A stretch of DNA of 45,057 nucleotides from a bacterium (GTDB lineage: Bacteria; Patescibacteriota; Saccharimonadia; Saccharimonadales; OMJO01): the NCBI GenBank assembly GCA_900299395.1, contig OMJO01000038.1, positions 1 to 45,057 of the forward strand, written 5' to 3'. Shown here piece after piece: positions 5,951 to 39,659 of the stretch. Within the stretch, counting starts at the first letter, position 1. The number at the start of each line of letters is the position of its first letter. Below the pieces are notes generated by a model that was not told the origin of the DNA, ran no database searches, and saw only the letters and a list, made by a program, of their open reading frames with translations. A program made the position numbers and the translations under genes.

Positions 5951-6943
5951 ATGCCCATAAAAACCGCGGCCAAACGACATAGTCGTGCCCCGCGACACAA
6001 ACACACAAAACACTATCTGCAAGCATACTGGCCGTACTTGCCCATGTTGCTTGTAGTCCTTATCGGGCTAATATTTGGTGGCAACCGACCCTTTAGCCCA
6101 GCCAGTCATCGCGGCGTTCTGTCTTATGCAACAGAAATGAGTGCTGGCGCCTTATTAGCAGCAACGAACGTACAGCGCGCAAATAATGGAGCCGCAAGTT
6201 TAACCACAAACTCTCAGCTTAACAGCGCAGCGCAAGCAAAGGCCAATGACATGGTCGCCCGTAACTACTGGTCTCATAACACCCCCGACGGACAAGAGCC
6301 ATGGGTATTTATCCAGAACGCTGGGTATAAGTACTCAAAGGCTGGCGAGAACCTTGCATACGGCTTCGCGACAAGCAGTGACACCGTTACTGGATGGATG
6401 AATAGTGCGACCCACAAGGCGAATCTACTTGATACAGCCTTTACAGAAGTTGGGTTTGGTATAGCCAACAGCAGCAGCTTTAACTCTTCGGGTGAAGAAA
6501 CGGTTGTCGTCGCCATGTACGGTAAACCGCAAGTTCTTGCGGCAGAGAGCTCAGCACCGGCCCCCGCGCCAGCAAAAAAGACAACTACTACACAACCGGC
6601 AGAAACAAAACCTATCGAGACTAAGCCACCGGTAGAAAAACCAGCAGAGAAAAAACAAGACGCTGTCGTCGCTTCTAACAAACCGATTATTGAGCCAGCA
6701 ACCCAAACGGTCACACGCGCAAACATATGGACAAAGGGTAAAACACCCTGGGTTGTTGGGGCAATCGTCTCGCTCTCGGGAATAGGAGCTGTGATATTGC
6801 TTGTCAGACACGGCCTCGGGTTTCACCGCCTTGTAAGAGACGGTGAACGGTTCGTACTCAAGCACCCACTTTTTGACTTAGCACTCGTTACCTTACTTAT
6901 GCTCGGATACGTTTTGAGTGCCACAAAAGGCTTTATAAAATAA
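5951..6943 (+). CDS. CAP/SCP (YkwD-like) domain protein with N- and C-terminal membrane segments
   Basis: N-terminal TM (WPYLPMLLVVLIGLIFG). CAP core (NYWSHN...GENLAYGF...GWMNS..H..N..D..FTEVGFG). P/T/K-rich linker, then two hydrophobic C-terminal segments. Confidence 0.75.
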   Translation: MPIKTAAKRHSRAPRHKHTKHYLQAYWPYLPMLLVVLIGLIFGGNRPFSPASHRGVLSYATEMSAGALLAATNVQRANNGAASLTTNSQLNSAAQAKANDMVARNYWSHNTPDGQEPWVFIQNAGYKYSKAGENLAYGFATSSDTVTGWMNSATHKANLLDTAFTEVGFGIANSSSFNSSGEETVVVAMYGKPQVLAAESSAPAPAPAKKTTTTQPAETKPIETKPPVEKPAEKKQDAVVASNKPIIEPATQTVTRANIWTKGKTPWVVGAIVSLSGIGAVILLVRHGLGFHRLVRDGERFVLKHPLFDLALVTLLMLGYVLSATKGFIK

Positions 6944-6951
6944 TCTCGTTT

Positions 6952-9900
6952 TTACTTGAGTCTGACGTTCGTCTCACCAACAATTTTTTGTAACTCACTC
7001 ATAACCGCATCGCTACCCTCTACCCGTGATGGCAATCGTATTATTTGTTTGTTCACTTCTGGACCAAGCACCAATACAACTTCCGTTTTGCCTACGTTCC
7101 CATCGATAATACTTTTAAGCGTCAGTAGCATCTGATGATCATCACCTTTTTCAATTCGTATGTACAGCCGCTGAGGAAGATCCTCGACCGTCGGCAAAAC
7201 CTGGGCAGCTTTTGGCTTACTTGCCTTTGGCACTTTAGGTTTTTCCCCTGTGGGCTGATACGCCACCGCCTGCTCAGAAGTTAACTCGCGAGCATCATCA
7301 ACTAATACTCTCAGCTCCGTTCCACTTGCGCCATTCTTGTCTTTAGTAGAAAGTTTACCTTTTGCCAATACAACACGATCACGTTCCCAAATACCAGTTG
7401 TTTTTTGGTAGATACCCGGGAAGAGTATTAGTTCAATCTCACTAAACCGGTCAGCCACTTTAACAAATGCCATCTTTTGACCATTTTTTGTGGTAATTTC
7501 TCGCATATCAATGATACTACCACCAACACTAACAACTTTATTGTCATGATCCACCGTTAGCGTATTTAAAGGAATAGTATGCTCAGCCAATAGATGCTCA
7601 AACGCCTCAAGCGGGTGCTGGCTTAAATACAACCCGAGTAATTCACGCTCCCAAAGTAATTGTTCCCTAACTTCAATGCGATTGGCTGGTTTATCTAAAC
7701 TAAGCTTGGGCTGAGCGGCAACTTCTTCGATGGCGTTGCCGAATAAGTCCGTCTGGCCACTGGCCGCTTGTTTTTGCAGGCGCCCACCATATGCCAACAT
7801 GACATCGAGGTTGTGCAATAAAACATCGCGTTCGCCAAACCTATCGAAAGCACTTGCTTTTATCAAACTTTCCAGAGCTTTGCGATTGACAACCCGAGTG
7901 CTAACCCTGGCAAAGAAATCCTCTAAATCAGCAAAGCTGGCTTCTTGGCGTGCCCGCAGAATTTCTTCAACTGCCGCTGTCCCAACGTTTTTAATCGCTG
8001 CCAGCCCAAAACGGATTTGATTTTGTTCTGGTACTACCGCAAACTCCACGAACGACTCGTTGACATCAGGGGCAAGCACCTCGATACCCATGTGTTTGCA
8101 TTCAGTGATTTCTATCGCAAGGCGGTCGGTATTGTCAAAATCACTTGTCATCAAGGCTGCCATGAATGCTGCGGGATAGTTTGCCTTGAGGTAGGCGGTT
8201 TGGTAGGCGATCAATGCATAGCAGGCCGCGTGTGCTTTATTGAAACAATACGCAGCAAAGTCTTCCAGTTGCTTCCAAAAAGTATCCATCGTAGCACGGT
8301 CTGCGCCAACTGTTTTTATGGCGCCCTCTATAAACTCTGCTTTGAGTTTCTTCATGACTTCTGGAATCTTTTTTCCTATAGCCTTTCGAAGAGTATCCGC
8401 TTGTCCACCAGTGAATCCACACATTTCTTTGCTGATCTGCATGACCTGTTCCTGGTAGACAATCACGCCGTAAGAGCTTTTCAGGGCTGGCTCCATTGCT
8501 GGATGCAGATACTCAATCTTTTTCTCTCCGTGTTTTCGTGCAATAAAGTCATCTATCCATTGCATTGGTCCTGGGCGGTACAACGCAACCATTGCAACTA
8601 TATCTTCAAAGACGTTGGGCTTGAGCTCTTTGAGGTATCGCTTCATGCCCGCAGATTCAAGTTGGAAGACACCTGTTGTGTCCCCCTTCTGTAGCAATGT
8701 AAAGGTTTTTTTATCTGTGAGTGGGATATTGTTAATCTCTATGTCAGTGCCGTGTACCCGTTTAATAATCCTCAGGGCATTTTTGATAATGGTAAGGTTA
8801 GAAAGCCCAAGGAAGTCCATTTTTAAGAGCCCAAGTTCGTCAATCGGACCCATCGAATATTGCGTGGCAATGACGCCCTTCTGAGCCTTTTCGAGTGGCA
8901 CAAATTTCACAATTTCATCTGGGGCAATGACCACTCCTGCCGCGTGAACACCATGGCTACGCATGGTGCCTTCTAGCTGAACCGCCAGATCAAATACCCT
9001 CTTTGCCTGTTCGTTTGTTTCGTATTCATGTTTGAGATCTGGTGCGTTGAGTAATGATTGTTCCAATGGTGTATGCCGGCCCTGTATTGGTGGAGGAATC
9101 ATTTTTGCCCAACGATCAGCTTCGGCGTAAGGTACTTGCAGTACTCGTGCGACGTCGCGAACGGCATTTCGAGCCGCCATACGGCCAAATGTCACGATGT
9201 TCGCCACACGATCCTCACCGTATTTATCAACACAATACTGTATAACCTCGTCACGGCGACTATCTTGTATGTCAATATCAAAATCAGGCATGCTTATACG
9301 ATCAGGGTTCAGAAATCTCTCAAACAGAAGGTCATACATAAGTGGGTCAAGTTCAGTGATACGCAAAGCATACGCGACAATGGATCCCGCCCCACTGCCT
9401 CTGCCCGGCCCGAAGACAATCCCTTGATCTTTCCCCCACGTAATAAAATCCTGCACGATCAAGAAATAACCATTGAAGCCCATCCTATCAATCACCCCAA
9501 GTTCGTACTCTGCCCTCTCCACAATGTCTTTTGGCAGTTCCTTTTTGATTTGAGCAACTGTCAGTTTCTTGCTTGCAGCACCTTCGCCGTAACGTCTCAA
9601 TAAACCATGATAAGTTAGCTGGTCAAGGTAGCTTTTTTCGGTTTCTGAAGCAGGTACCGGGAATTTTGGAATAAGATACTGCCCGAGCGTGATTTCAACA
9701 TCGCATCGCTCTGCAACAGCTGCAGTGTTGCGTATAAGGTCAGGATATTTTGCGCCCCATCGTTTAATTATTTCTTGCGGATCAGTAACATGAAGCTCAA
9801 AGTCTTTCAAAGACATTCTTTTTTCGTCTGAGAGGAATGAGCCAGTTTGTACACACAGTAATATCTCGTGAGCTTCTTGGTCTTTGTGCTTCAGATAGTG

Positions 9901-34567: not shown

Positions 34568-36334
34568 CTAGCCAGCAATTTCAAACTCCTTCAGTTTTTC
34601 ATCGGCTGCGGTACCTTTGTGCTGTAGGCGTAATAGCTGAGCGTAGATTCCGTTACTTCTCGCCAGTTCTTGCGGACTACCTACTTCATCGATACGACCT
34701 TTGCGAATCGTGACAATCTGATCGACATTACTAATAGTGCTGAGTCGGTGGGCAATAATAATCGTGGTTCGCCCCTTCATGAGCCTTTCTAGGGCTTGCT
34801 GCACCATAGCTTCACTCTTACTGTCGAGACTACTGGTCGCTTCGTCGAGTATCAAAATTGGCGCATCTTTTAGTAGTGCACGAGCGATAGCTATTCGCTG
34901 TTTTTGCCCGCCAGACAATTTTAATCCTCGTTCACCAATCTCTGTTTGGTAACCCTTTTCTAGTTTAGTAATAAACTCGTCAGCATTCGCTGCTTTCGCG
35001 GCCGCCTCGACTTCGACCTGCGAAGCGTTGGGTCGTGCGTAGGAAATATTTTCAAATATGGTACCGCTAAATAGGGCGGGGTCTTGGAACACTACCCCAA
35101 TGTTTTGCCGTAACGACTGTTGTGTTACTACGTTAATATCTTGTCCGTCTATAGTGATAGTCCCCGACTGTGGTTCATAGAGGCGCATAAGGAGGTTGGT
35201 GAGAGTTGTCTTGCCTTCGCCGCTTTCACCAACCAAGGCCACTTTACTATCGGGGAGGATGTCTAAGGAGATGTTTTGCAGAACTGGCTCCTTGTCATAC
35301 GCAAACGAAACATTATCGAAAACAATATGAGCCCGAGTTATCTGTAGTGCAGCTGCATCAGTAGCGTCGGCGATCTGTGGCTGTATATTCATAATTTCAA
35401 AGTAGTCTTGGCTGTCTGATATAGCACGCTGCGTATTCTCGACGAGAAAACTAATCGTAAAAATCGGGATCCTAATCTGCATAGCATAGAGAATGAGCGC
35501 TACGGTCTGGCCTGGCGTTAATACCCCCCGTGCGCCCTGTACAAATACATACATGTACACTGACAAAAATATGACATTAAGCACAACGCGACGTTGTACA
35601 TCTCGTACATGCCAAAAGCGTGACTGAGGGACATTTGTGTCTACCACCGTTTGCATGTGTTTGTCGAAGAAAGCATTTTCTCGCTTTTCCTGTATGTAAC
35701 TTTTGACAACCTTTACCTGGCTAATCGATTCGGCGAAGCGGCCACTCGCTATGTCGGTATGTTTGTTTTTCTTTGCCTGATACTGCTGCCACGTACTACT
35801 GCTCAAGAACGTCATCCATACATAAATCGGATAGAGCAAGAACAGCATAAGTGCCACTTGCCAGCTATAGATAGCCATCACAATGAGCGCAAACACCGTA
35901 CTAAAGATAAACTGCAGGAAGTTGTTGCTCATCATCTGCATAAAGTTCGCGATCTGTACTATCGAACGATTGAGACGATTAATGATTTTGCCGGAAAGTT
36001 CAGTATCAAAATATTGCTGTGGCAGGCTTAAAAGGTGCGCATAGTAGCGGCTGCTCAGTACTTTATTAAGCTTCGCCGACATTTGATCACCCAGGTAACC
36101 ACCAATGTTACTAAATAACGTGCTAAAAATATCCATCAGAAAAATTACTACTGCCAAGACGACCACATACTGGACACGAGCGTTAGTTCCTTTGCGTATC
36201 TCGTCGATTGCCCATCCAGACAGCAAGGGCTGCAATAAACTCATCAAGCTTAATAAAATAGTAAAAAAACTAATCGCCACGTAATAGCGCCATAGTTCAC
36301 GCCCTGACTGCAAAATCCGAAGAATGTGCTTCAT
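34568..36334 (-). CDS. ABC exporter, fused permease/ATPase (MsbA-like)
   Basis: 588 aa with six N-terminal TM segments, Walker A GESGEGKTT, signature LSGGQKQR and Walker B ILILDEATS. Confidence 0.9.
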   Translation of the reverse strand: MKHILRILQSGRELWRYYVAISFFTILLSLMSLLQPLLSGWAIDEIRKGTNARVQYVVVLAVVIFLMDIFSTLFSNIGGYLGDQMSAKLNKVLSSRYYAHLLSLPQQYFDTELSGKIINRLNRSIVQIANFMQMMSNNFLQFIFSTVFALIVMAIYSWQVALMLFLLYPIYVWMTFLSSSTWQQYQAKKNKHTDIASGRFAESISQVKVVKSYIQEKRENAFFDKHMQTVVDTNVPQSRFWHVRDVQRRVVLNVIFLSVYMYVFVQGARGVLTPGQTVALILYAMQIRIPIFTISFLVENTQRAISDSQDYFEIMNIQPQIADATDAAALQITRAHIVFDNVSFAYDKEPVLQNISLDILPDSKVALVGESGEGKTTLTNLLMRLYEPQSGTITIDGQDINVVTQQSLRQNIGVVFQDPALFSGTIFENISYARPNASQVEVEAAAKAANADEFITKLEKGYQTEIGERGLKLSGGQKQRIAIARALLKDAPILILDEATSSLDSKSEAMVQQALERLMKGRTTIIIAHRLSTISNVDQIVTIRKGRIDEVGSPQELARSNGIYAQLLRLQHKGTAADEKLKEFEIAG

Positions 36335-36342
36335 CGCTTACT

Positions 36343-36372
36343 ATTGTATCCCTGTTTTAAAACTTTAAACAA
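36343..36372 (-). promoter_or_regulatory. Putative promoter of the ABC exporter gene (near-leaderless)
   Basis: TACAAT (36348..36343) lies 8 nt upstream of ATG 36334. A TTGTTT/TGTTTA -35 candidate overlaps the U-tract of the upstream terminator. Confidence 0.45.
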
Positions 36373-36422
36373 AAACATCTCCCAAAACCGATGTTGCATG
36401 AGAACATCAACTTTGGGAGATG
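36367..36422 (-). terminator. Intrinsic terminator ending the ncRNA unit
   Basis: Minus-strand CAUCUCCCAAA (36422..36412) pairs perfectly with UUUGGGAGAUG (36386..36376). There is an inner 6-bp helix (36408..36403 with 36395..36390). UUUUUGUUU follows at 36375..36367. Confidence 0.75.
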
Positions 36423-37025
36423 AACAGGTGTAATAGGGTGTGGTGGGAAGTGGGAATTAGTGGTGCCGTAATCGGAACCAAAACTCAACCACTTCTTGGT
36501 CGGCTAGGGTGGGCGCAGGAACGCCTCGTTGGGCAGGGAACGAAACGCCCAGCAGCCCACCCTAACCGGTGTGTCGGGAAGAAAGCCCTCTCGTTCATGC
36601 AGGTGGTGACCGCAGATGTTGAGGCTTTTGAATAGAGAAACTCCGTCCAGTCTCTCGCATCAATCGTTGCAGCAAGCGCCTCCGGCTAGAAGCTCGCGCA
36701 AAACTCTCTTCCCGAGCGATGGGTGGGCGACAAATGCGTCACACGCAACAACGATCAGACTGATAGCGTCGTCACGCATGTTCGAGGGCGTTTGCCTGCC
36801 CACTGAGTGGGGGCTGGAGTGATTCGGCTTCGTAACCGACCAGGAGCGGGTGATCCCTGCAATCCTGACTCAACGATTGGGTGCGAGTGGCGGCAAGCAC
36901 GAGCAACCGTTCCTATGGTAGGACAGCCCCACGGCTATGTGTCTGTAAATACAGACAGCTGTGCCTAGCTATTCCCTAATAGCCACGCAAAACTGTCTGT
37001 ACGACCCGTATCTATTACACCTGTT
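36423..37025 (-). ncRNA. Candidate large structured non-coding RNA, class unknown
   Basis: 603-nt core closed by a perfect 14-bp helix (37025..37012 with 36436..36423). Other helices: 9 bp (36707..36715 with 36574..36582), 10 bp (36505..36514 with 36555..36564), 7-8 bp (36496..36503 with 36836..36843) and 8 bp with a G.U (36872..36879 with 36904..36911). No minus-strand ORF of 60 aa or more. It is flanked by its own promoter and terminator. Confidence 0.7.
36443..36456. repeat. Tandem heptamer GTGGGAA x2 (UUCCCAC x2 in the minus-sense RNA)
   Basis: Direct reading of 36443..36449 and 36450..36456. It lies just inside the 3' strand of the closing helix. Confidence 0.9.
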
Positions 37026-37068
37026 AAAGTACTCTTAGGAATCTCTCGACTCAACCAAAAGCTGATAA

Positions 37069-37097
37069 ATTATACAACGACGACCGAATAAATGCAA
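37069..37097 (-). promoter_or_regulatory. Sigma70-type promoter for the ncRNA unit
   Basis: Minus strand TTGCAT (37097..37092), a 17-nt spacer, then TATAAT (37074..37069). It starts 16 nt after the pheT stop. No ATG lies within 6-11 nt downstream, unlike the CDS promoters in this window. Confidence 0.65.
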
Positions 37098-37112
37098 CGG
37101 AATTCTTCCTTT

Positions 37113-39659
37113 TTATACGCGTTCCGCACCGAGAGATTCACTAGCGGTGGCGACAGAGTCTAGCAACGAATTAACCACCTCAGCCTTTAACGTGCGCGTG
37201 GAATCACTAACCCACAGACGGAAGGTAACATGCTTGTGATGCGTATCTTCCTCTGATCGATATATTCGAGGCTCTCCCACGACGACCATCATTGAATCTT
37301 GTACGAGATCGTGTAGCGCTGCCTGTACTGTGCTGTGAAGCTCTTGGTAGGAAACTTCATTTTTTACACGCAAGGTTATGTCTTGTACGACTTTTGGAAA
37401 TCGCGATAACGGTGTGTACCCTGGATTTTGGGCGGCCACGCGCATTAGCTGCCGAACGTCTAGTTCAAAGCCCGCTGTTGCAGGAGGCAATTTGAACGCA
37501 CGTCGCGTCGGCGCGCTGAACTCCCCAATTTCGCCCAAGAATTCATCAGTTGTCGACGTAATAATAGCAGCACGATCTACATCAAATGGCGCTATCGCGG
37601 CCCGACTAATTGGCTGGTCAGGATGATGCTCGGTGGCTGGCTTATACTTTGTGCTGATGCCCAAAAAATCAAAAAGACTATCCGCGTAATGGCGAGCCAT
37701 ATAATATGCAGCCCCTTCGTACTTACGCGTATAGGTTTTTTCGTCTGCCGCAAAAACCACTGCCAAGCGCAAATCTTCTACGGGTAATCTATCTTTATCT
37801 TTTAGGTCTTTGCCAAACACTGGATTTATTTCGAATATAACAAATTCGTTATCATCCCCGCGCACAATGTCACTTTTAAGATTCGAATGAACTTTATCAA
37901 GCAGACTTGGCGCAAGACTTTGTCGGTAATACTGTAACTCTGGACTCAAGGCATTTGATAGCTGATACGCATTCTGCGGGTCTTGCCCGACTTTTTCAAA
38001 CAGATTGCCATGCACAAACGTGTAGGTCAGGACCTCGTTGGCGCCAGCTCGGGCCAGCAGTGTGCGTAGCGTATTCTGGAAATCAAGCAACGAATTGTGC
38101 GGCGCCGGTTCAATGCCTCGTGTAGGTAAAAGTAATGGCAGTTTGTCGTACCCATACAGTCGGCCGATTTCCTCGACTACATCCTCAGGAATCTCAATGT
38201 CAGTACGCCAGAACGGTGGAATCACGTGCAGTCGAGTTTTGTCTGCCGGCACACTCACGATTTTGAACTCCACATTCTCGAGTAACGTAGCCATCTCCTT
38301 TAAAGAAAGTTTCGAACCAAGCCGTTCGTTTACAAAGTCGCTCGATACTGTCACGCCCTTTGTTGCATTATCTTGCGCCTTGGCGGATTTGAGATCATGG
38401 TAGCTCCCTGCGATGCCAGCATCTGGGCACAGGTCCAAAATCATCTCAACAGCATGCGCCAAAACGACGTCATTTTGCTTGGACGATTGACCTTTGTTAA
38501 ACCGTGTCACTGCGTCCGTAAATATGCCATGCTCCATGCTCGTTTTACGCACGGAGTACATATCGAATGAGGCACACTCTATAACTATGTTTTTGGTCGT
38601 CTCACTGACTTCGGTATCAGCTCCACCTATGACACCACCTACGCCAACAAGCTTTTTGGCGCTAGCAATCATGATGGCCTCACGTCGTGGAGTAATCGTT
38701 TTGCCATTCAGTAACTTTAGCTCTTCCCCTTTTGCCGGGTGACGTACCACCAGTGTTGCCGCAGAAGTACCGTCTTGCTCACACAGTCGATCGTGGTCGT
38801 ATGCATGTAAAGGCTGACCCGTGAGCATCATGATGTAATTAGTCACGTCAACAATGTTGTTGATGGGCCGTATGCCCACGCGTGAAAGATAGGCTTGGAG
38901 CCACACCGGACTGGGCTTAACTGTCACGTCACTGACTGCAACAGCCATGAATCGAGGCGACAACGCCGGTAGTTCATTCTTGACTTTTAAGCTCAGTTTT
39001 TTACCTTGGCGCTGCTCAGTTACGGCCTTTCGATACCAATTGGGTGATTCAAACTTCTGATGCTGTATACCTGCAATCTCGCGCGCCAATCCGAGTTCAC
39101 CGAACAAGTCAGGACGGTGTGTGAACATCTTGTTTTCAATATCAATAATGTAGTCATCAAAACCCACAGCCTGGGCAAAGGAAGTACCGGGTTTTATCGT
39201 CGATTCGAGCGTTACTATACCGCTATGATCGTCGCTAATATCCAGCTCACTGGCGCTCGCCAGCATACCATTGCTCATTTCACCACGAATTTCTCGAGCT
39301 TCTAATACAAAGGGGTCCTTTTCCACTGTGCTCGGGACTGTCACCCCCGGGGGCAACCACGCAACATGAAGCCCGACCGCTACGTTGGGAGCACCACACA
39401 CTACCTGAACGTGACCTTTGGCATTTCGGGTAACATGCTTCGCTGCGCCACCATCATCTATAGTGCACACATGCAACTTATCGGCATTAGGATGTTTTTC
39501 ACACGTCACGACCTTGGCGACCACAATTCCCTCGTAGCGCTTACCTAAGTCGGTGACTTCTTCAACCTCACCTAATTGGGCGCCAATTTTTTGCACCAAA
39601 TCGTCAATGCTTACCTTTACTGACGTATATTCTTTGATCCAATTGAGGCTTACTTTCAT
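37113..39659 (-). CDS. pheT: Phenylalanine--tRNA ligase beta subunit
   Basis: 848 aa with an N-terminal tRNA-binding domain (VVTCEKHPNADKLHVCTIDDG), B3/4 and B5 domains and a C-terminal anticodon-binding domain. 4-nt overlap with pheS. Confidence 0.95.
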   Translation of the reverse strand: MKVSLNWIKEYTSVKVSIDDLVQKIGAQLGEVEEVTDLGKRYEGIVVAKVVTCEKHPNADKLHVCTIDDGGAAKHVTRNAKGHVQVVCGAPNVAVGLHVAWLPPGVTVPSTVEKDPFVLEAREIRGEMSNGMLASASELDISDDHSGIVTLESTIKPGTSFAQAVGFDDYIIDIENKMFTHRPDLFGELGLAREIAGIQHQKFESPNWYRKAVTEQRQGKKLSLKVKNELPALSPRFMAVAVSDVTVKPSPVWLQAYLSRVGIRPINNIVDVTNYIMMLTGQPLHAYDHDRLCEQDGTSAATLVVRHPAKGEELKLLNGKTITPRREAIMIASAKKLVGVGGVIGGADTEVSETTKNIVIECASFDMYSVRKTSMEHGIFTDAVTRFNKGQSSKQNDVVLAHAVEMILDLCPDAGIAGSYHDLKSAKAQDNATKGVTVSSDFVNERLGSKLSLKEMATLLENVEFKIVSVPADKTRLHVIPPFWRTDIEIPEDVVEEIGRLYGYDKLPLLLPTRGIEPAPHNSLLDFQNTLRTLLARAGANEVLTYTFVHGNLFEKVGQDPQNAYQLSNALSPELQYYRQSLAPSLLDKVHSNLKSDIVRGDDNEFVIFEINPVFGKDLKDKDRLPVEDLRLAVVFAADEKTYTRKYEGAAYYMARHYADSLFDFLGISTKYKPATEHHPDQPISRAAIAPFDVDRAAIITSTTDEFLGEIGEFSAPTRRAFKLPPATAGFELDVRQLMRVAAQNPGYTPLSRFPKVVQDITLRVKNEVSYQELHSTVQAALHDLVQDSMMVVVGEPRIYRSEEDTHHKHVTFRLWVSDSTRTLKAEVVNSLLDSVATASESLGAERV

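Follow-up and report, generated by a model that had tools for sequence, protein, structure and literature searches.

A candidate self-contained gene for a large structured RNA, set in a conserved frame whose cargo varies among Saccharibacteria

An uncultured member of the Saccharibacteria has, flanked by two housekeeping genes and at positions 36367-37097 on the minus strand, a predicted RNA unit of no known class, and the question is what kind of gene it represents. The stretch of DNA analyzed (positions 1 to 45,057 of contig OMJO01000038.1) is referred to here as the window. An earlier note on the window had proposed a highly structured RNA of no recognizable class, and the Rfam 15 check agreed with this: no match at the gathering score fell in the unit in the window-wide search, and no match even at an E value of ≤10 was obtained for either strand of 36250-37200, save microRNA noise on single hairpins. 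ARAGORN found neither a tRNA nor a tmRNA in the unit, and literature searches turned up no account of RNAs of this kind from Saccharibacteria. To our knowledge, the non-coding RNAs of candidate-phyla-radiation bacteria, which have tiny genomes, are almost uncharted.

Locus and expression signals

The neighboring genes are yajQ, pheS, pheT, an ABC exporter gene, and a NUDIX gene. Two assemblies of this organism showed no difference from each other. As the earlier note had stated, the 778-bp gap at 36335-37112 lacks minus-strand ORFs of at least 60 aa, and the short ORFs of the unit have no match to any Pfam family. The GC content is also higher than that of the neighbors, as claimed, reaching 0.57 in the unit versus about 0.42 to 0.49 in the flanks. 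The promoter proposed there (37069..37097, minus strand) was found again by direct reading of the sequence and consists of the -35 element TTGCAT (37097-37092), a 17-nt spacer, and the -10 element TATAAT (37074-37069), located directly 3' of the pheT stop codon (37115-37113). It was not listed by the automated promoter scan because TTGCAT matches TTGACA at three of six positions. The same layout recurs in about a dozen relatives, including L107, L111, L112, L114, L108, L049, L013, L004, L047, L031, and L014, where it lies upstream of the frame described below.

At the other end of the unit (36367..36422, minus strand), the terminator scan detected the two-tier hairpin that had been predicted, a 47-nt terminator-like structure (36422-36376) reported together with TTTTTGTTT and continuing into the U-tract UUUUUGUUU (36375-36367). 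This hairpin is predicted to act as a terminator and/or to protect the 3' end. The downstream ABC gene has a TACAAT box of its own 8 nt before its ATG, and similar boxes are present in relatives, so that its expression would be independent of read-through. These signals support the view of the region as a self-contained unit that brings its own promoter and 3' hairpin or terminator and is predicted to be transcribed from the minus strand.

The leader preceding the structured interior contains a small hairpin in the minimum free energy (MFE) fold, GCUUUUGG..GAGUC-GAGA-GAUUC..CCUAAGAG (37031..37062, minus strand), at the position taken by boxB in the leader of an rRNA operon. Its motif UUUGGUWGAG..CUCCC is kept in at least 10 relatives. 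Next comes the leader motif GUACUUUAACAG (37021..37032, minus strand), with the family consensus GYACWUURACAG derived from 19 frames, which resembles boxA or an endonuclease site as judged from the sequence. It agrees at 9 to 10 of 11 positions with the boxA consensus GYTCTTTAANA of gamma-proteobacteria (PMC5725501). The third position differs from boxA in nearly all members, and the leader of L042 matches the boxA consensus exactly. An RNase E-type RN|WUU site fits the leader motif as well as boxA does. In L108, the ACA of the motif is conserved though unpaired.

The last 5 nt of the leader motif are at the same time the first 5 nt of a leader-trailer helix, the clamp. Its 5' strand AACAGGUGUAAUAG (37012..37025, minus strand) pairs perfectly over 14 bp with the 3' strand CUAUUACACCUGUU (36423..36436, minus strand), as the earlier note had read it, and the 14-mer occurs nowhere else in the window. 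Across the family, clamps measure 11 to 18 bp. In the covariation analysis, 98% of the cells were paired, both sides were changed in 8 of 10 pairs, and none of 500 shuffles equaled this result, versus 24% to 49% pairing in controls slid along the sequence; the percentage paired is inflated because much of the set was gathered via an exact inverted repeat search. Support for the clamp that is free of this ascertainment bias comes from the nine nearest pheT relatives, which were chosen by pheT alone and without a repeat search: five of them carry frames with perfect clamps of 12 to 15 bp. Clamp sequences drift freely while complementarity is retained, including G.U pairs on the sense strand.

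Fold and homologues of the cargo

The interior between the clamp strands is a GC-rich stretch of 575 nt, here called the cargo. The 699-nt unit folds with an MFE of -309 kcal/mol, and the comparison with shuffled sequences (z = -9.2 for the minus strand versus -3.6 for the plus strand) agrees with the earlier proposal of a highly structured minus-strand RNA with paired ends. For the cargo alone, the z scores are -9.4 in sense and -2.7 in antisense. The sense strand folds better in 14 of 17 family cargos, most of which have z scores between -5 and -13.

In the MFE fold of the minus strand, the cargo is resolved into six domains. H1 (36948..37004) is a long hairpin conserved in L107, L111, L112, L108, and L114. 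D2 (36810..36930) is a cloverleaf-shaped junction of four hairpins closed by GGGGCUG/CCAGCCCC, followed by H3 (36723..36803), another long hairpin. D4 (36574..36715) is a three-hairpin junction with a 13-bp closing stem, CUCGGGAAGAGAG/CUUUCUUCCCGA, and H5 (36501..36568) is a long, near-perfect hairpin. The hairpin H6 (36447..36495) is followed by a C/A-rich single strand of 10 nt (36446-36437). Two helices listed in the earlier note, of 9 bp (36715-36707/36582-36574) and 10 bp (36564-36555/36514-36505), are perfect and part of this fold, as are the pairs 36876/36907 and 36959/36992, which had been correctly described as G.U pairs of the minus strand that read A.C on the plus strand. For the helix given there as 7 to 8 bp (36843-36836/36503-36496), seven pairs are present, but the helix does not occur in the MFE fold.

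One full-length homologue of the cargo, in the relative L107, was found by nhmmer (E = 5e-24), and the conservation of the cargo over its full length refers to this homologue only. Folded independently, the L107 cargo shows the same six-domain order as the window cargo (z = -13.2 in sense and -9.7 in antisense), and it retains RNA domains and not an ORF. The D2 closing stem is identical in L107, and the sub-hairpins carry consistent changes. At the position of H3, L107 has a hairpin in the same place with another sequence; D4 forms the same three-way junction, with the closing stem and hairpin 1 conserved and hairpins 2 and 3 diverged; a 69-nt hairpin of unrelated sequence stands at the H5 position; and a hairpin is also found at the equivalent of H6. 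RNAalifold on a MAFFT alignment of the window and L107 gave good results for H1 and D2, whereas the diverged H3, D4, and H5 were misaligned. A structure-guided alignment of the same pair yielded 66 shared pairs, compared with 2 to 40 for unrelated cargos but 62 for L111, so that its discrimination is modest. The conservation of H3, D4, and H5 therefore rests on two independent MFE folds with the same order of elements. Across six species, H1 has 22 bp, of which 93% are paired, with 11 pairs changed on both sides and a result equaled in none of 500 shuffles; its conserved sense-strand G.U pairs would read as A.C in the opposite orientation. The earlier note had asked for homologues with compensatory changes; a homologue is present in L107, and such changes support the clamp and H1.

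On sequence comparison, the lineage of the window-type cargo appears to comprise the window and L107, with partial relatives in L111, L112, L108, and L114. Since the interiors of the relatives are exchangeable and most relatives have no insert, this lineage is probably young and narrow. The 734-nt unit showed no similarity to any of 50,697 phage records, and an nhmmer search with the unit against the first 80 pheT loci gave only a weak match in the leader. A metagenome scan with the 3' signature AYRCCTGTYYNTYYCCCAAARTT gave 23 loci, which we regard as chance matches because none has a matching 5' arm, and the same signature had no match in viral contigs.

The frame and its cargos in other Saccharibacteria

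At least 22 elements in Saccharibacteria, mostly located just 3' of pheT or 5' of the ABC exporter gene, share a frame made up of a promoter, a leader of about 40 to 45 nt ending in GYACWUURACAG, a covarying clamp of 11 to 18 bp, and an adjoining 3' hairpin. The 3' hairpin has a 5' arm of the YCUCCCAAAG type in about 17 of the 22 frames, with compensating changes between the arms, and a U-tract follows in a few of them. The region is thus a conserved frame with variable cargo and not one conserved RNA family. Conservation lies in the surrounding promoter, leader motif, clamp, and 3' hairpin and not in the 600-nt RNA, and the interior is exchangeable among Saccharibacteria. All-against-all BLASTN of the cargos detected no common sequence except in the peptide region of L008 and L061.

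As cargos, the relatives have tRNAs, tRNA-like modules, small ORFs of the Cys-rich or zinc-ribbon type, or unrelated structured RNA. At the position of D2, L111 and L112 contain a real tRNA. Some tRNA cargos have abnormal anticodon loops or suppressor-type anticodons. At least five frames contain ORFs of 44 to 57 aa in the 3' half of the cargo, behind a perfect Shine-Dalgarno sequence of the GGAGGTGAT type, and the small peptides of these frames had no Pfam or NCBIfam match. As several members thus hold small ORFs with strong Shine-Dalgarno sequences, non-coding RNA is not the only content that the frame takes.

The earlier note had suggested a check on whether the pheT/ABC synteny is conserved: most relatives have no insert at this site, and the gap from pheT to the ABC gene is 0 to 60 nt. 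The RNA is therefore dispensable for the lineage as a whole, and this presence/absence pattern weakens the argument that a reduced genome spending 0.7 kb on a non-coding unit implies function. A profile HMM built from the leader brought back nothing beyond the members it was trained on, with no extra copies in 850 kb of the relatives outside the neighborhood.

Readings of the locus and known systems

We think it probable that the locus is a self-contained gene for a stable RNA, with a layout resembling that of a miniature rRNA operon and yielding an end-clamped ornate non-coding RNA that acts in trans. The near-consensus sigma-70-type promoter would initiate transcription at about 37062. The leader would then fold its small hairpin and leave the conserved single-stranded motif GUACUUUAACAG exposed, which may recruit a boxA-like antitermination/chaperone complex or mark a 5' processing site. 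The 14-nt 5' strand of the clamp would stay unpaired until its complement is made 575 nt later, and the resulting leader-trailer clamp would stack on the adjoining 3' hairpin, at which transcription is predicted to terminate. Sealed in this way, the RNA would have both ends shielded, and the clamp is probably also a site of double-strand-specific processing. The cargo would fold into the domains H1, D2, H3, D4, H5, and H6 and act in trans as a free RNA or an RNP particle, and would not regulate the neighboring genes. Our best guess is that it serves as a tRNA-related scaffold or decoy, because in relatives the place of D2 is taken by tRNAs, either real or aberrant.

It is unlikely that the element is instead a cis-acting leader or insulator of the ABC exporter gene, in which the fold and the terminator set how much transcription, whether it comes from pheST or starts at the promoter of the unit, gets to the ABC gene, by attenuation or as a riboswitch. 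Such a role would fit the position of most frames, which lie immediately 5' of an ABC exporter gene whose product begins with MK(H/Q/D)IWRI, even where the frame stands between two ABC genes and the exporter gene is still downstream (L015, L061, and L108). In some members, such as L112, the probable -35 region of the ABC promoter shares sequence with the 3' hairpin. The leader also contains UUUGGUUGAG, which is similar to the terminator's 3' arm and might in principle be a competitor for CUCCCAAAG. However, a -10 box belonging to the ABC gene precedes its ATG in the window and in relatives, the gene is expressed without any insert in most species, and some frames have no ABC neighbor, L013 being located upstream of yajQ and L014 and L016 upstream of another large gene. 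Interiors differ between frames, which leaves no common ligand-binding core, and a perfect 14-bp clamp is too stable for switching. A riboswitch or T-box was rejected on the same grounds, namely, the lack of an Rfam match, the variable interior, and the -10 box of the ABC gene. About equally improbable is a DNA-level element, in which the 14-bp inverted repeats are recombination or transposition sites of a mobile or invertible cassette at a pheT-ABC hotspot and RNA structure is secondary. The presence of the element at one site is patchy among relatives, interiors can be wholly different between identical clamps (L024 versus L026 and L015 versus L061), L014 contains two tandem units, an unrelated ORF of 120 aa occupies the site in L110, and the core CAGGYRT/AYRCCTG is kept in many clamps. 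Against this, the repeats are not accompanied by a target-site duplication or by an adjacent transposase, integrase, or invertase gene, and the element is single copy in the 45-kb window, with none extra in the relatives' sequence outside the neighborhood. The leader and the 3' hairpin are conserved beyond the repeats, the promoter always lies outside and upstream, all tRNAs and ORFs in the 22 frames are oriented as the promoter is, the clamp diverges with pairing kept, including sense-strand G.U pairs, and the cargos fold better on the sense strand. A MITE or IS-derived element was rejected for the missing target-site duplication and the single 14-mer pair in the window, and integron attC and dif-type sites were considered and rejected as well.

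Slightly less probable still is a small-protein cassette, decayed or atypical, that normally expresses a short peptide behind a long structured 5' untranslated region, as in L008, L061, L024, L038, and L042; the window cargo would then have lost its ORF or would encode an unrecognized micropeptide. The ORF-bearing frames are in line with this, as are a Cys-rich peptide kept in three species and the ORF of L008, which follows about 550 nt of structured RNA. The only ORF of the window cargo flagged for a Shine-Dalgarno sequence, however, is a 26-aa frame behind GGAGG that is not convincing, and the cargo showed no tblastn similarity to the family peptides and no Pfam match. L107 preserves RNA domains instead of an ORF, and such extreme, strand-biased folding (z = -9.4) would not be sustained by a decaying remnant. 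Least probable is a diverged housekeeping RNA (RNase P RNA, tmRNA, 6S RNA, signal recognition particle RNA, or a group I or II intron) missed by standard models in candidate-phyla-radiation bacteria. RNase P RNA, tmRNA, and 6S RNA do have paired ends, and the L038 cargo matches the tmRNA model, below threshold, at the tRNA-like ends. The Rfam and ARAGORN results nevertheless speak against it, and the absence of the element from most relatives and the non-homologous cargos are incompatible with an essential, universal RNA. RNase P RNA and tmRNA were rejected for the missing model matches, the patchy distribution, and the non-homologous cargos, and group I and group II introns were rejected as having no Rfam match and because the element is intergenic with its own promoter.

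The reading as a stable-RNA gene could also be widened. Tentatively, the locus may belong to a modular RNA cassette platform, in which a conserved expression-and-processing frame carries swapped ornate RNAs, odd tRNAs, and Cys-rich micropeptides, and the clamped products are set free as stable particles, perhaps RNA-only assemblies or circularized RNAs, that serve the episymbiotic lifestyle or phage defense; if so, this would be a new class of RNA gene organization, beyond one more non-coding RNA family. Even for the single locus, an RNA of ~600 nt with strong thermodynamic and comparative support for its structure has no relative in Rfam, and as a new large structured RNA it is a target for structure determination. 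The recurrence of the frame around odd tRNAs and micropeptides may point to a general rule for expressing and stabilizing structured RNAs in these organisms. If the leader motif is an equivalent of boxA, the reach of Nus-type antitermination in this phylum would include genes for non-ribosomal RNAs. The signature of the frame also offers a practical search handle for more such RNAs in metagenomes.

Among known systems, MITEs and invertible promoter segments share with the element short perfect inverted repeats around a few hundred bases and a patchy presence; the element differs in having no target-site duplication, in being single copy with conserved outer flanks and a fixed orientation, and in preserving complementarity through sequence change. 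Retron msr-msd is similar in that inverted repeats at the ends (a1/a2) form a helix around a variable structured interior, but the element in the window is 3 to 5 times longer, has a conserved leader before the 5' repeat, and lacks a conserved branching-G context. A retron was rejected, as the flanking genes are pheT and the ABC exporter gene and no reverse transcriptase gene is adjacent. OLE (RF01071) is likewise a structured bacterial non-coding RNA of ~600 nt and is expressed as a unit of its own, as is predicted here; the window has no match to its model and no oapA/B/C nearby, and the host phylum is different.

GOLLD (RF01998) and ROOL (RF03087) belong to the same size class of 500 to 800 nt and have multi-domain folds. 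Both occur near tRNA islands, and tRNAs lie in some cases within the linker of GOLLD (PMC12286853); here, related cargos have tRNAs or tRNA-like modules built into them. Unlike these RNAs, which are found in phages or prophages, the frame resides in a chromosomal housekeeping neighborhood of Saccharibacteria, it is the frame and not the body that is conserved, and the window RNA has long, almost perfect helices and lacks the conserved pseudoknotted cores that mark GOLLD and ROOL. The covariance models of OLE, ROOL, and GOLLD gave no match in the window even at an E value of ≤10 and none in the loci of 17 relatives that were scanned, and all three were rejected. The likeness to OLE, ROOL, and GOLLD raised in the earlier note therefore extends to size and style and not beyond.

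The rRNA operon, with its antitermination leader of boxB, boxA, and boxC and a helix processed by RNase III, offers the comparison for the frame itself. The frame departs from it in several respects: the cargo is not rRNA, with no match to small-subunit, large-subunit, or 5S rRNA in the window or in the relatives' loci, and some cargos are small mRNAs; the helix of the frame has 11 to 18 bp, whereas rRNA leader-trailer helices have 25 to 40 bp (PMC10250234); the boxA-like motif overlaps the helix, whereas boxA and boxC of Escherichia coli are separated by a gap of 18 to 19 nt; and a conserved 3' hairpin adjoins the helix. In the rRNA leader, the boxB hairpin, boxA, and the 5' strand of the leader-trailer helix follow each other in this order, and in a published model anchoring at boxA aids helix formation (PMC10250234). 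The frame has a comparable arrangement, in which the promoter is followed by a small hairpin, by a U-rich boxA-like motif (GYACWUURACAG versus GYUCUUUAANA), and by a GU-rich 5' strand that pairs across a long structured RNA, with tRNAs possible inside the bracket. As in rRNA operons, the long-range leader-trailer helix covaries, with some of the 5' strand kept constant, and clamps were perfect in all five frames found free of the repeat search.

Gene neighborhood and fold of the unit

The window derives from a Saccharibacteria (TM7) genome. The organism is represented by another assembly as well, which does not differ from the window over 8.5 kb. Its PheT is encoded by an 848-aa ORF (37113-39659, minus strand), and the closest relatives of this protein are all from Saccharibacteria. 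Identity did not exceed 61% to any other sequence among the 5.8 billion clustered proteins searched, or 58% to anything in 185,579 species-representative genomes, and by this comparison no close relative of the organism was found in the collections searched. Read along the minus strand, the genes are yajQ (on the opposite strand), pheS, pheT, and, after a 778-nt gap, the ABC exporter gene (34568-36334) and NUDIX. The ABC exporter mRNA is probably leaderless, as judged from a TACAAT box (36343-36348) only 8 nt upstream of the ATG (36332-36334) and the lack of a Shine-Dalgarno sequence. In the homologous loci L004, L015, L024, L026, L107, L110, and L112 of other Saccharibacteria, GCTACAAT or TATAGT is found 7 to 12 nt upstream of the ABC ATG.

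The earlier note read the gap as a transcription unit for a highly structured RNA of no recognized class, and all of its listed elements were recovered at the coordinates given. These include the promoter (TTGCAT, 17 nt, TATAAT; 37097-37069), the perfect 14-bp closing helix (37025-37012 with 36436-36423), and the two-tier 3' hairpin of 47 nt (36422-36376) followed by UUUUUGUUU. The proposed 9-bp and 10-bp internal helices are both perfect, and they and the two proposed G.U pairs are all present in the minimum-free-energy fold. The 7- to 8-bp helix (36843-36836 with 36503-36496) can be drawn in the sequence but is the sole such element outside the predicted fold. As noted earlier, minus-strand ORFs of ≥60 aa are absent from the gap, and its short ORFs matched no Pfam family. 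The GC content is indeed raised (0.57 in the region versus about 0.42 to 0.49 in the flanks), and the folding z score of the unit is -9.2 for the minus strand versus -3.6 for the plus strand. No Rfam 15 model matched anywhere in the window at the gathering score, and at E ≤ 10 the region gave only microRNA noise on single hairpins. ARAGORN found neither a tRNA nor a tmRNA. Together with the homologue and covariation results below, the evidence for structure in the unit is strong.

Frame and clamp in related loci

Among 80 Saccharibacteria loci retrieved via PheT, in most cases pheT abuts the ABC gene, 0 to 60 nt away, and an insert is present in a minority. The inserts have no interior sequence in common, and sequence comparison indicates that they are one conserved frame with variable cargo. 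The frame consists of a near-consensus promoter, its spacer 17 nt long; a leader of ~45 nt that contains a small hairpin (UUUGGUWGAG..CUCCC) together with the motif GYACWUURACAG; a fully complementary long-range helix of 11 to 18 bp, here called the clamp; and a two-tier hairpin of ~45 nt (5' arm, YCUCCCAAAG), which abuts the clamp 3' strand. Few members have a U-tract with this hairpin. Inspection of nine of the nearest relatives 3' of pheT yielded five further frames (L107, L108, L111, L112, and L114), bringing the total to 22 elements, two of which are tandem copies in L014. The majority of frames are located directly after pheT. In L015, L061, and L108, the frame has an ABC gene on either side, and in L013 it is found upstream of yajQ. 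The gene 3' of the frame is in many members an ABC exporter gene, which retains a TAnnnT box of its own a few bases upstream of the ATG.

The L014 frames (6635-7090 and 7303-7788), located after pheT, are both complete and have separate promoters, near-identical leaders (UUGGUAGCAGUGCUCCCC..GGUUGAGAAC), and different clamps and cargos. L107 has its closest relative in L110 (PheT 72% identical), where no frame is present between pheT and the ABC gene and the site is occupied by a 120-aa ORF (6662-7024) with no Pfam hit on record. The short pheT-ABC intergenic site appears to be a place where content varies particularly often.

The clamp sequences are highly diverse (ACAGGUGU.., ACAGGCAU.., AGGCAGAUAAUA, GGUAGGUAUAA, CGGUACAAAUGG, GGUGUAGAUACG, and others), and yet the arms are complementary in every case. 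Among 11 distinct clamps, 98% of cells are paired and both partners have changed in 8 of 10 pairs; none of 500 shuffles matched these values, and slid controls were 24% to 49% paired. The pairing count is biased, as many members came from an exact inverted-repeat search; however, the clamps are also perfect in all members free of this bias, i.e., those found by the leader motif and the five found by inspecting pheT neighbors. A real RNA helix is favored over a protein-binding DNA repeat or transposon end on the basis of G.U pairs on the sense strand, the absence of any target-site duplication detected around the repeats, the single, always fixed orientation of the cargo relative to the frame, and sequence conservation that continues outside the repeats.

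Cargo of the window and of other species

The element in L107 (assembly GCA_034680565.1; PheT 60% identical to that of the window) occupies the same site and is a full-length match to the unit (nhmmer E = 5e-24). Folded independently (z = -13.2 sense, -9.7 antisense), it has the same order of predicted domains: H1, a long hairpin; D2, a cloverleaf-shaped junction whose closing stem (GGGGCUG/CCAGCCCC) is identical in both; H3, a long hairpin; D4, a junction of three hairpins with a conserved closing stem of 12 to 13 bp; H5, a near-perfect hairpin of ~68 nt; and H6, a hairpin with a short single strand between it and the clamp. The sequences of H3, H5, H6, and two D4 arms differ between the two species, but their place and shape are kept. 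Sequence-only alignment failed on these diverged hairpins, whereas a crude structure-guided alignment gave 66 shared pairs, compared to 2 to 40 for unrelated cargos. Conservation of H3 to H6 is supported, but by a single homologue only, L107.

H1 is also present in L111, L112, L108, and L114. In the resulting six sequences, its 22 pairs are 93% paired and both partners have changed in 11 of them (0 of 500 shuffles as good; slid controls, 30% to 42% paired). Conservation also includes several sense-strand G.U pairs. At 36940-36960 of the window, the H1 3' strand (CUGUCUGU) is followed by ACAGAC, which could replace the 5' strand as its partner; this could be an alternative fold or switch. Comparable small competing hairpins lie 3' of H1 in L111, L112, and L114. 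At the exact position of D2, the close relatives L111 and L112 carry real tRNAs, Phe-GAA and an odd Asn-AUU with an unmodified-looking A34, respectively, which hints that D2 is a candidate tRNA-like or tRNA-derived module. The T-loop consensus is absent from D2.

Most of the 17 cargos folded are exceptionally structured, with z scores of -5 to -13, and the sense strand folds better than the antisense strand in 14; the exceptions are ORF-dominated. The GC content exceeds that of the surroundings in all but one. Structured RNA alone makes up the cargo in, e.g., the window, L107, L031, and L049. tRNA or tRNA-like modules occur in L015, L042, L044, L047, L111, L112, L014a, and L038. The embedded tRNAs are often aberrant (L044 6968-7043, 7068-7140, and 7153-7249; L042 6604-6682; L047 9785-9859 and 9983-10056; L112 2955-3030 versus L111 6752-6825), with ARAGORN "anticodons" of 2 or 4 nt denoting non-7-nt anticodon loops, and one L047 tRNA has the anticodon UCA, which would read UGA. 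For the L038 module (6684-6754), the match to the tmRNA model is confined to its two ends (E = 3.7e-6, below the gathering score), the tRNA-like domain without an anticodon arm, and a CxxC..CxxC zinc-ribbon ORF follows the module. Some cargos contain small ORFs with GGAGGTGAT-type Shine-Dalgarno sites. Zinc-ribbon peptides are encoded in L038 and L044, and a Cys-rich peptide of 44 to 57 aa (C.GCC..C.GKAGR.SFGGLS.VTC..C....CP; perfect Shine-Dalgarno GGAGGTGA) is common to L008 (7113-7265), L061 (4431-4565), and L024 (7143-7316), each copy directly 5' of an ABC exporter gene. The cargo peptides matched no Pfam or NCBIfam family.

Proposed working, alternatives, and known systems

The unit runs from the promoter through a small hairpin, a conserved U-rich single-stranded motif, and the GU-rich 5' strand of a helix to the structured RNA and the partner strand, an order that matches that of rRNA operon leaders (boxB, boxA, boxC, and then the leader-trailer helix). 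GYACWUURACAG agrees with the boxA consensus, GYUCUUUAANA (PMC5725501), at 9 to 10 of 11 positions; nearly all members differ from this gammaproteobacterial consensus at position 3, and the L042 motif matches it exactly. [quoted passage not shown] In L108, the ACA of the leader motif is conserved though unpaired by the helix. Based on the layout and the boxA-like motif, the unit is proposed to be a self-contained stable-RNA gene. Transcription would start near 37062, and the leader motif would load an antitermination/chaperone complex or mark a 5' processing site; for the latter, the motif is also compatible with the RN|WUU preference of RNase E-type enzymes. Once its 3' arm is transcribed, the clamp would pair and stack on the 3' hairpin, shielding both RNA ends and probably serving as a double-strand processing site, and the six-domain cargo may work in trans.

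A cis-regulatory leader for the ABC gene is unlikely, as that gene has its own promoter, most species lack the insert, and the interior is unconserved. A mobile or invertible cassette acting at the DNA level would account for the patchy distribution and cargo replacement, but no target duplication flanks the repeats, no recombinase gene is adjacent, the 45-kb window has a single copy, and the cargo features of all 22 frames share one orientation. That the unit is a decayed peptide cassette is contradicted by the RNA domains conserved in L107 and by folding that is both extreme and strand biased, and a diverged housekeeping RNA is excluded, since no model matches and the element is dispensable.

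The window unit is best described as a putative structured-RNA gene with an rrn-like frame. Its organization is unexpected, and the lineage of its cargo is narrow. No description of framed RNA genes of this kind was found in the literature for Saccharibacteria. A truly new modular cassette system is considered a rather improbable reading of the frame. The unit belongs to none of the OLE, ROOL, GOLLD, RNase P, tmRNA, intron, T-box, and retron families; for each, a defining feature was looked for and not found. GOLLD and ROOL, which are large ornate RNAs with a link to tRNAs (PMC12286853), are similar to it in style. In function, the unit resembles an rRNA-type leader-trailer unit, from which it differs in its short helix, in the overlap of the motif with the helix, and in its nonribosomal cargo.
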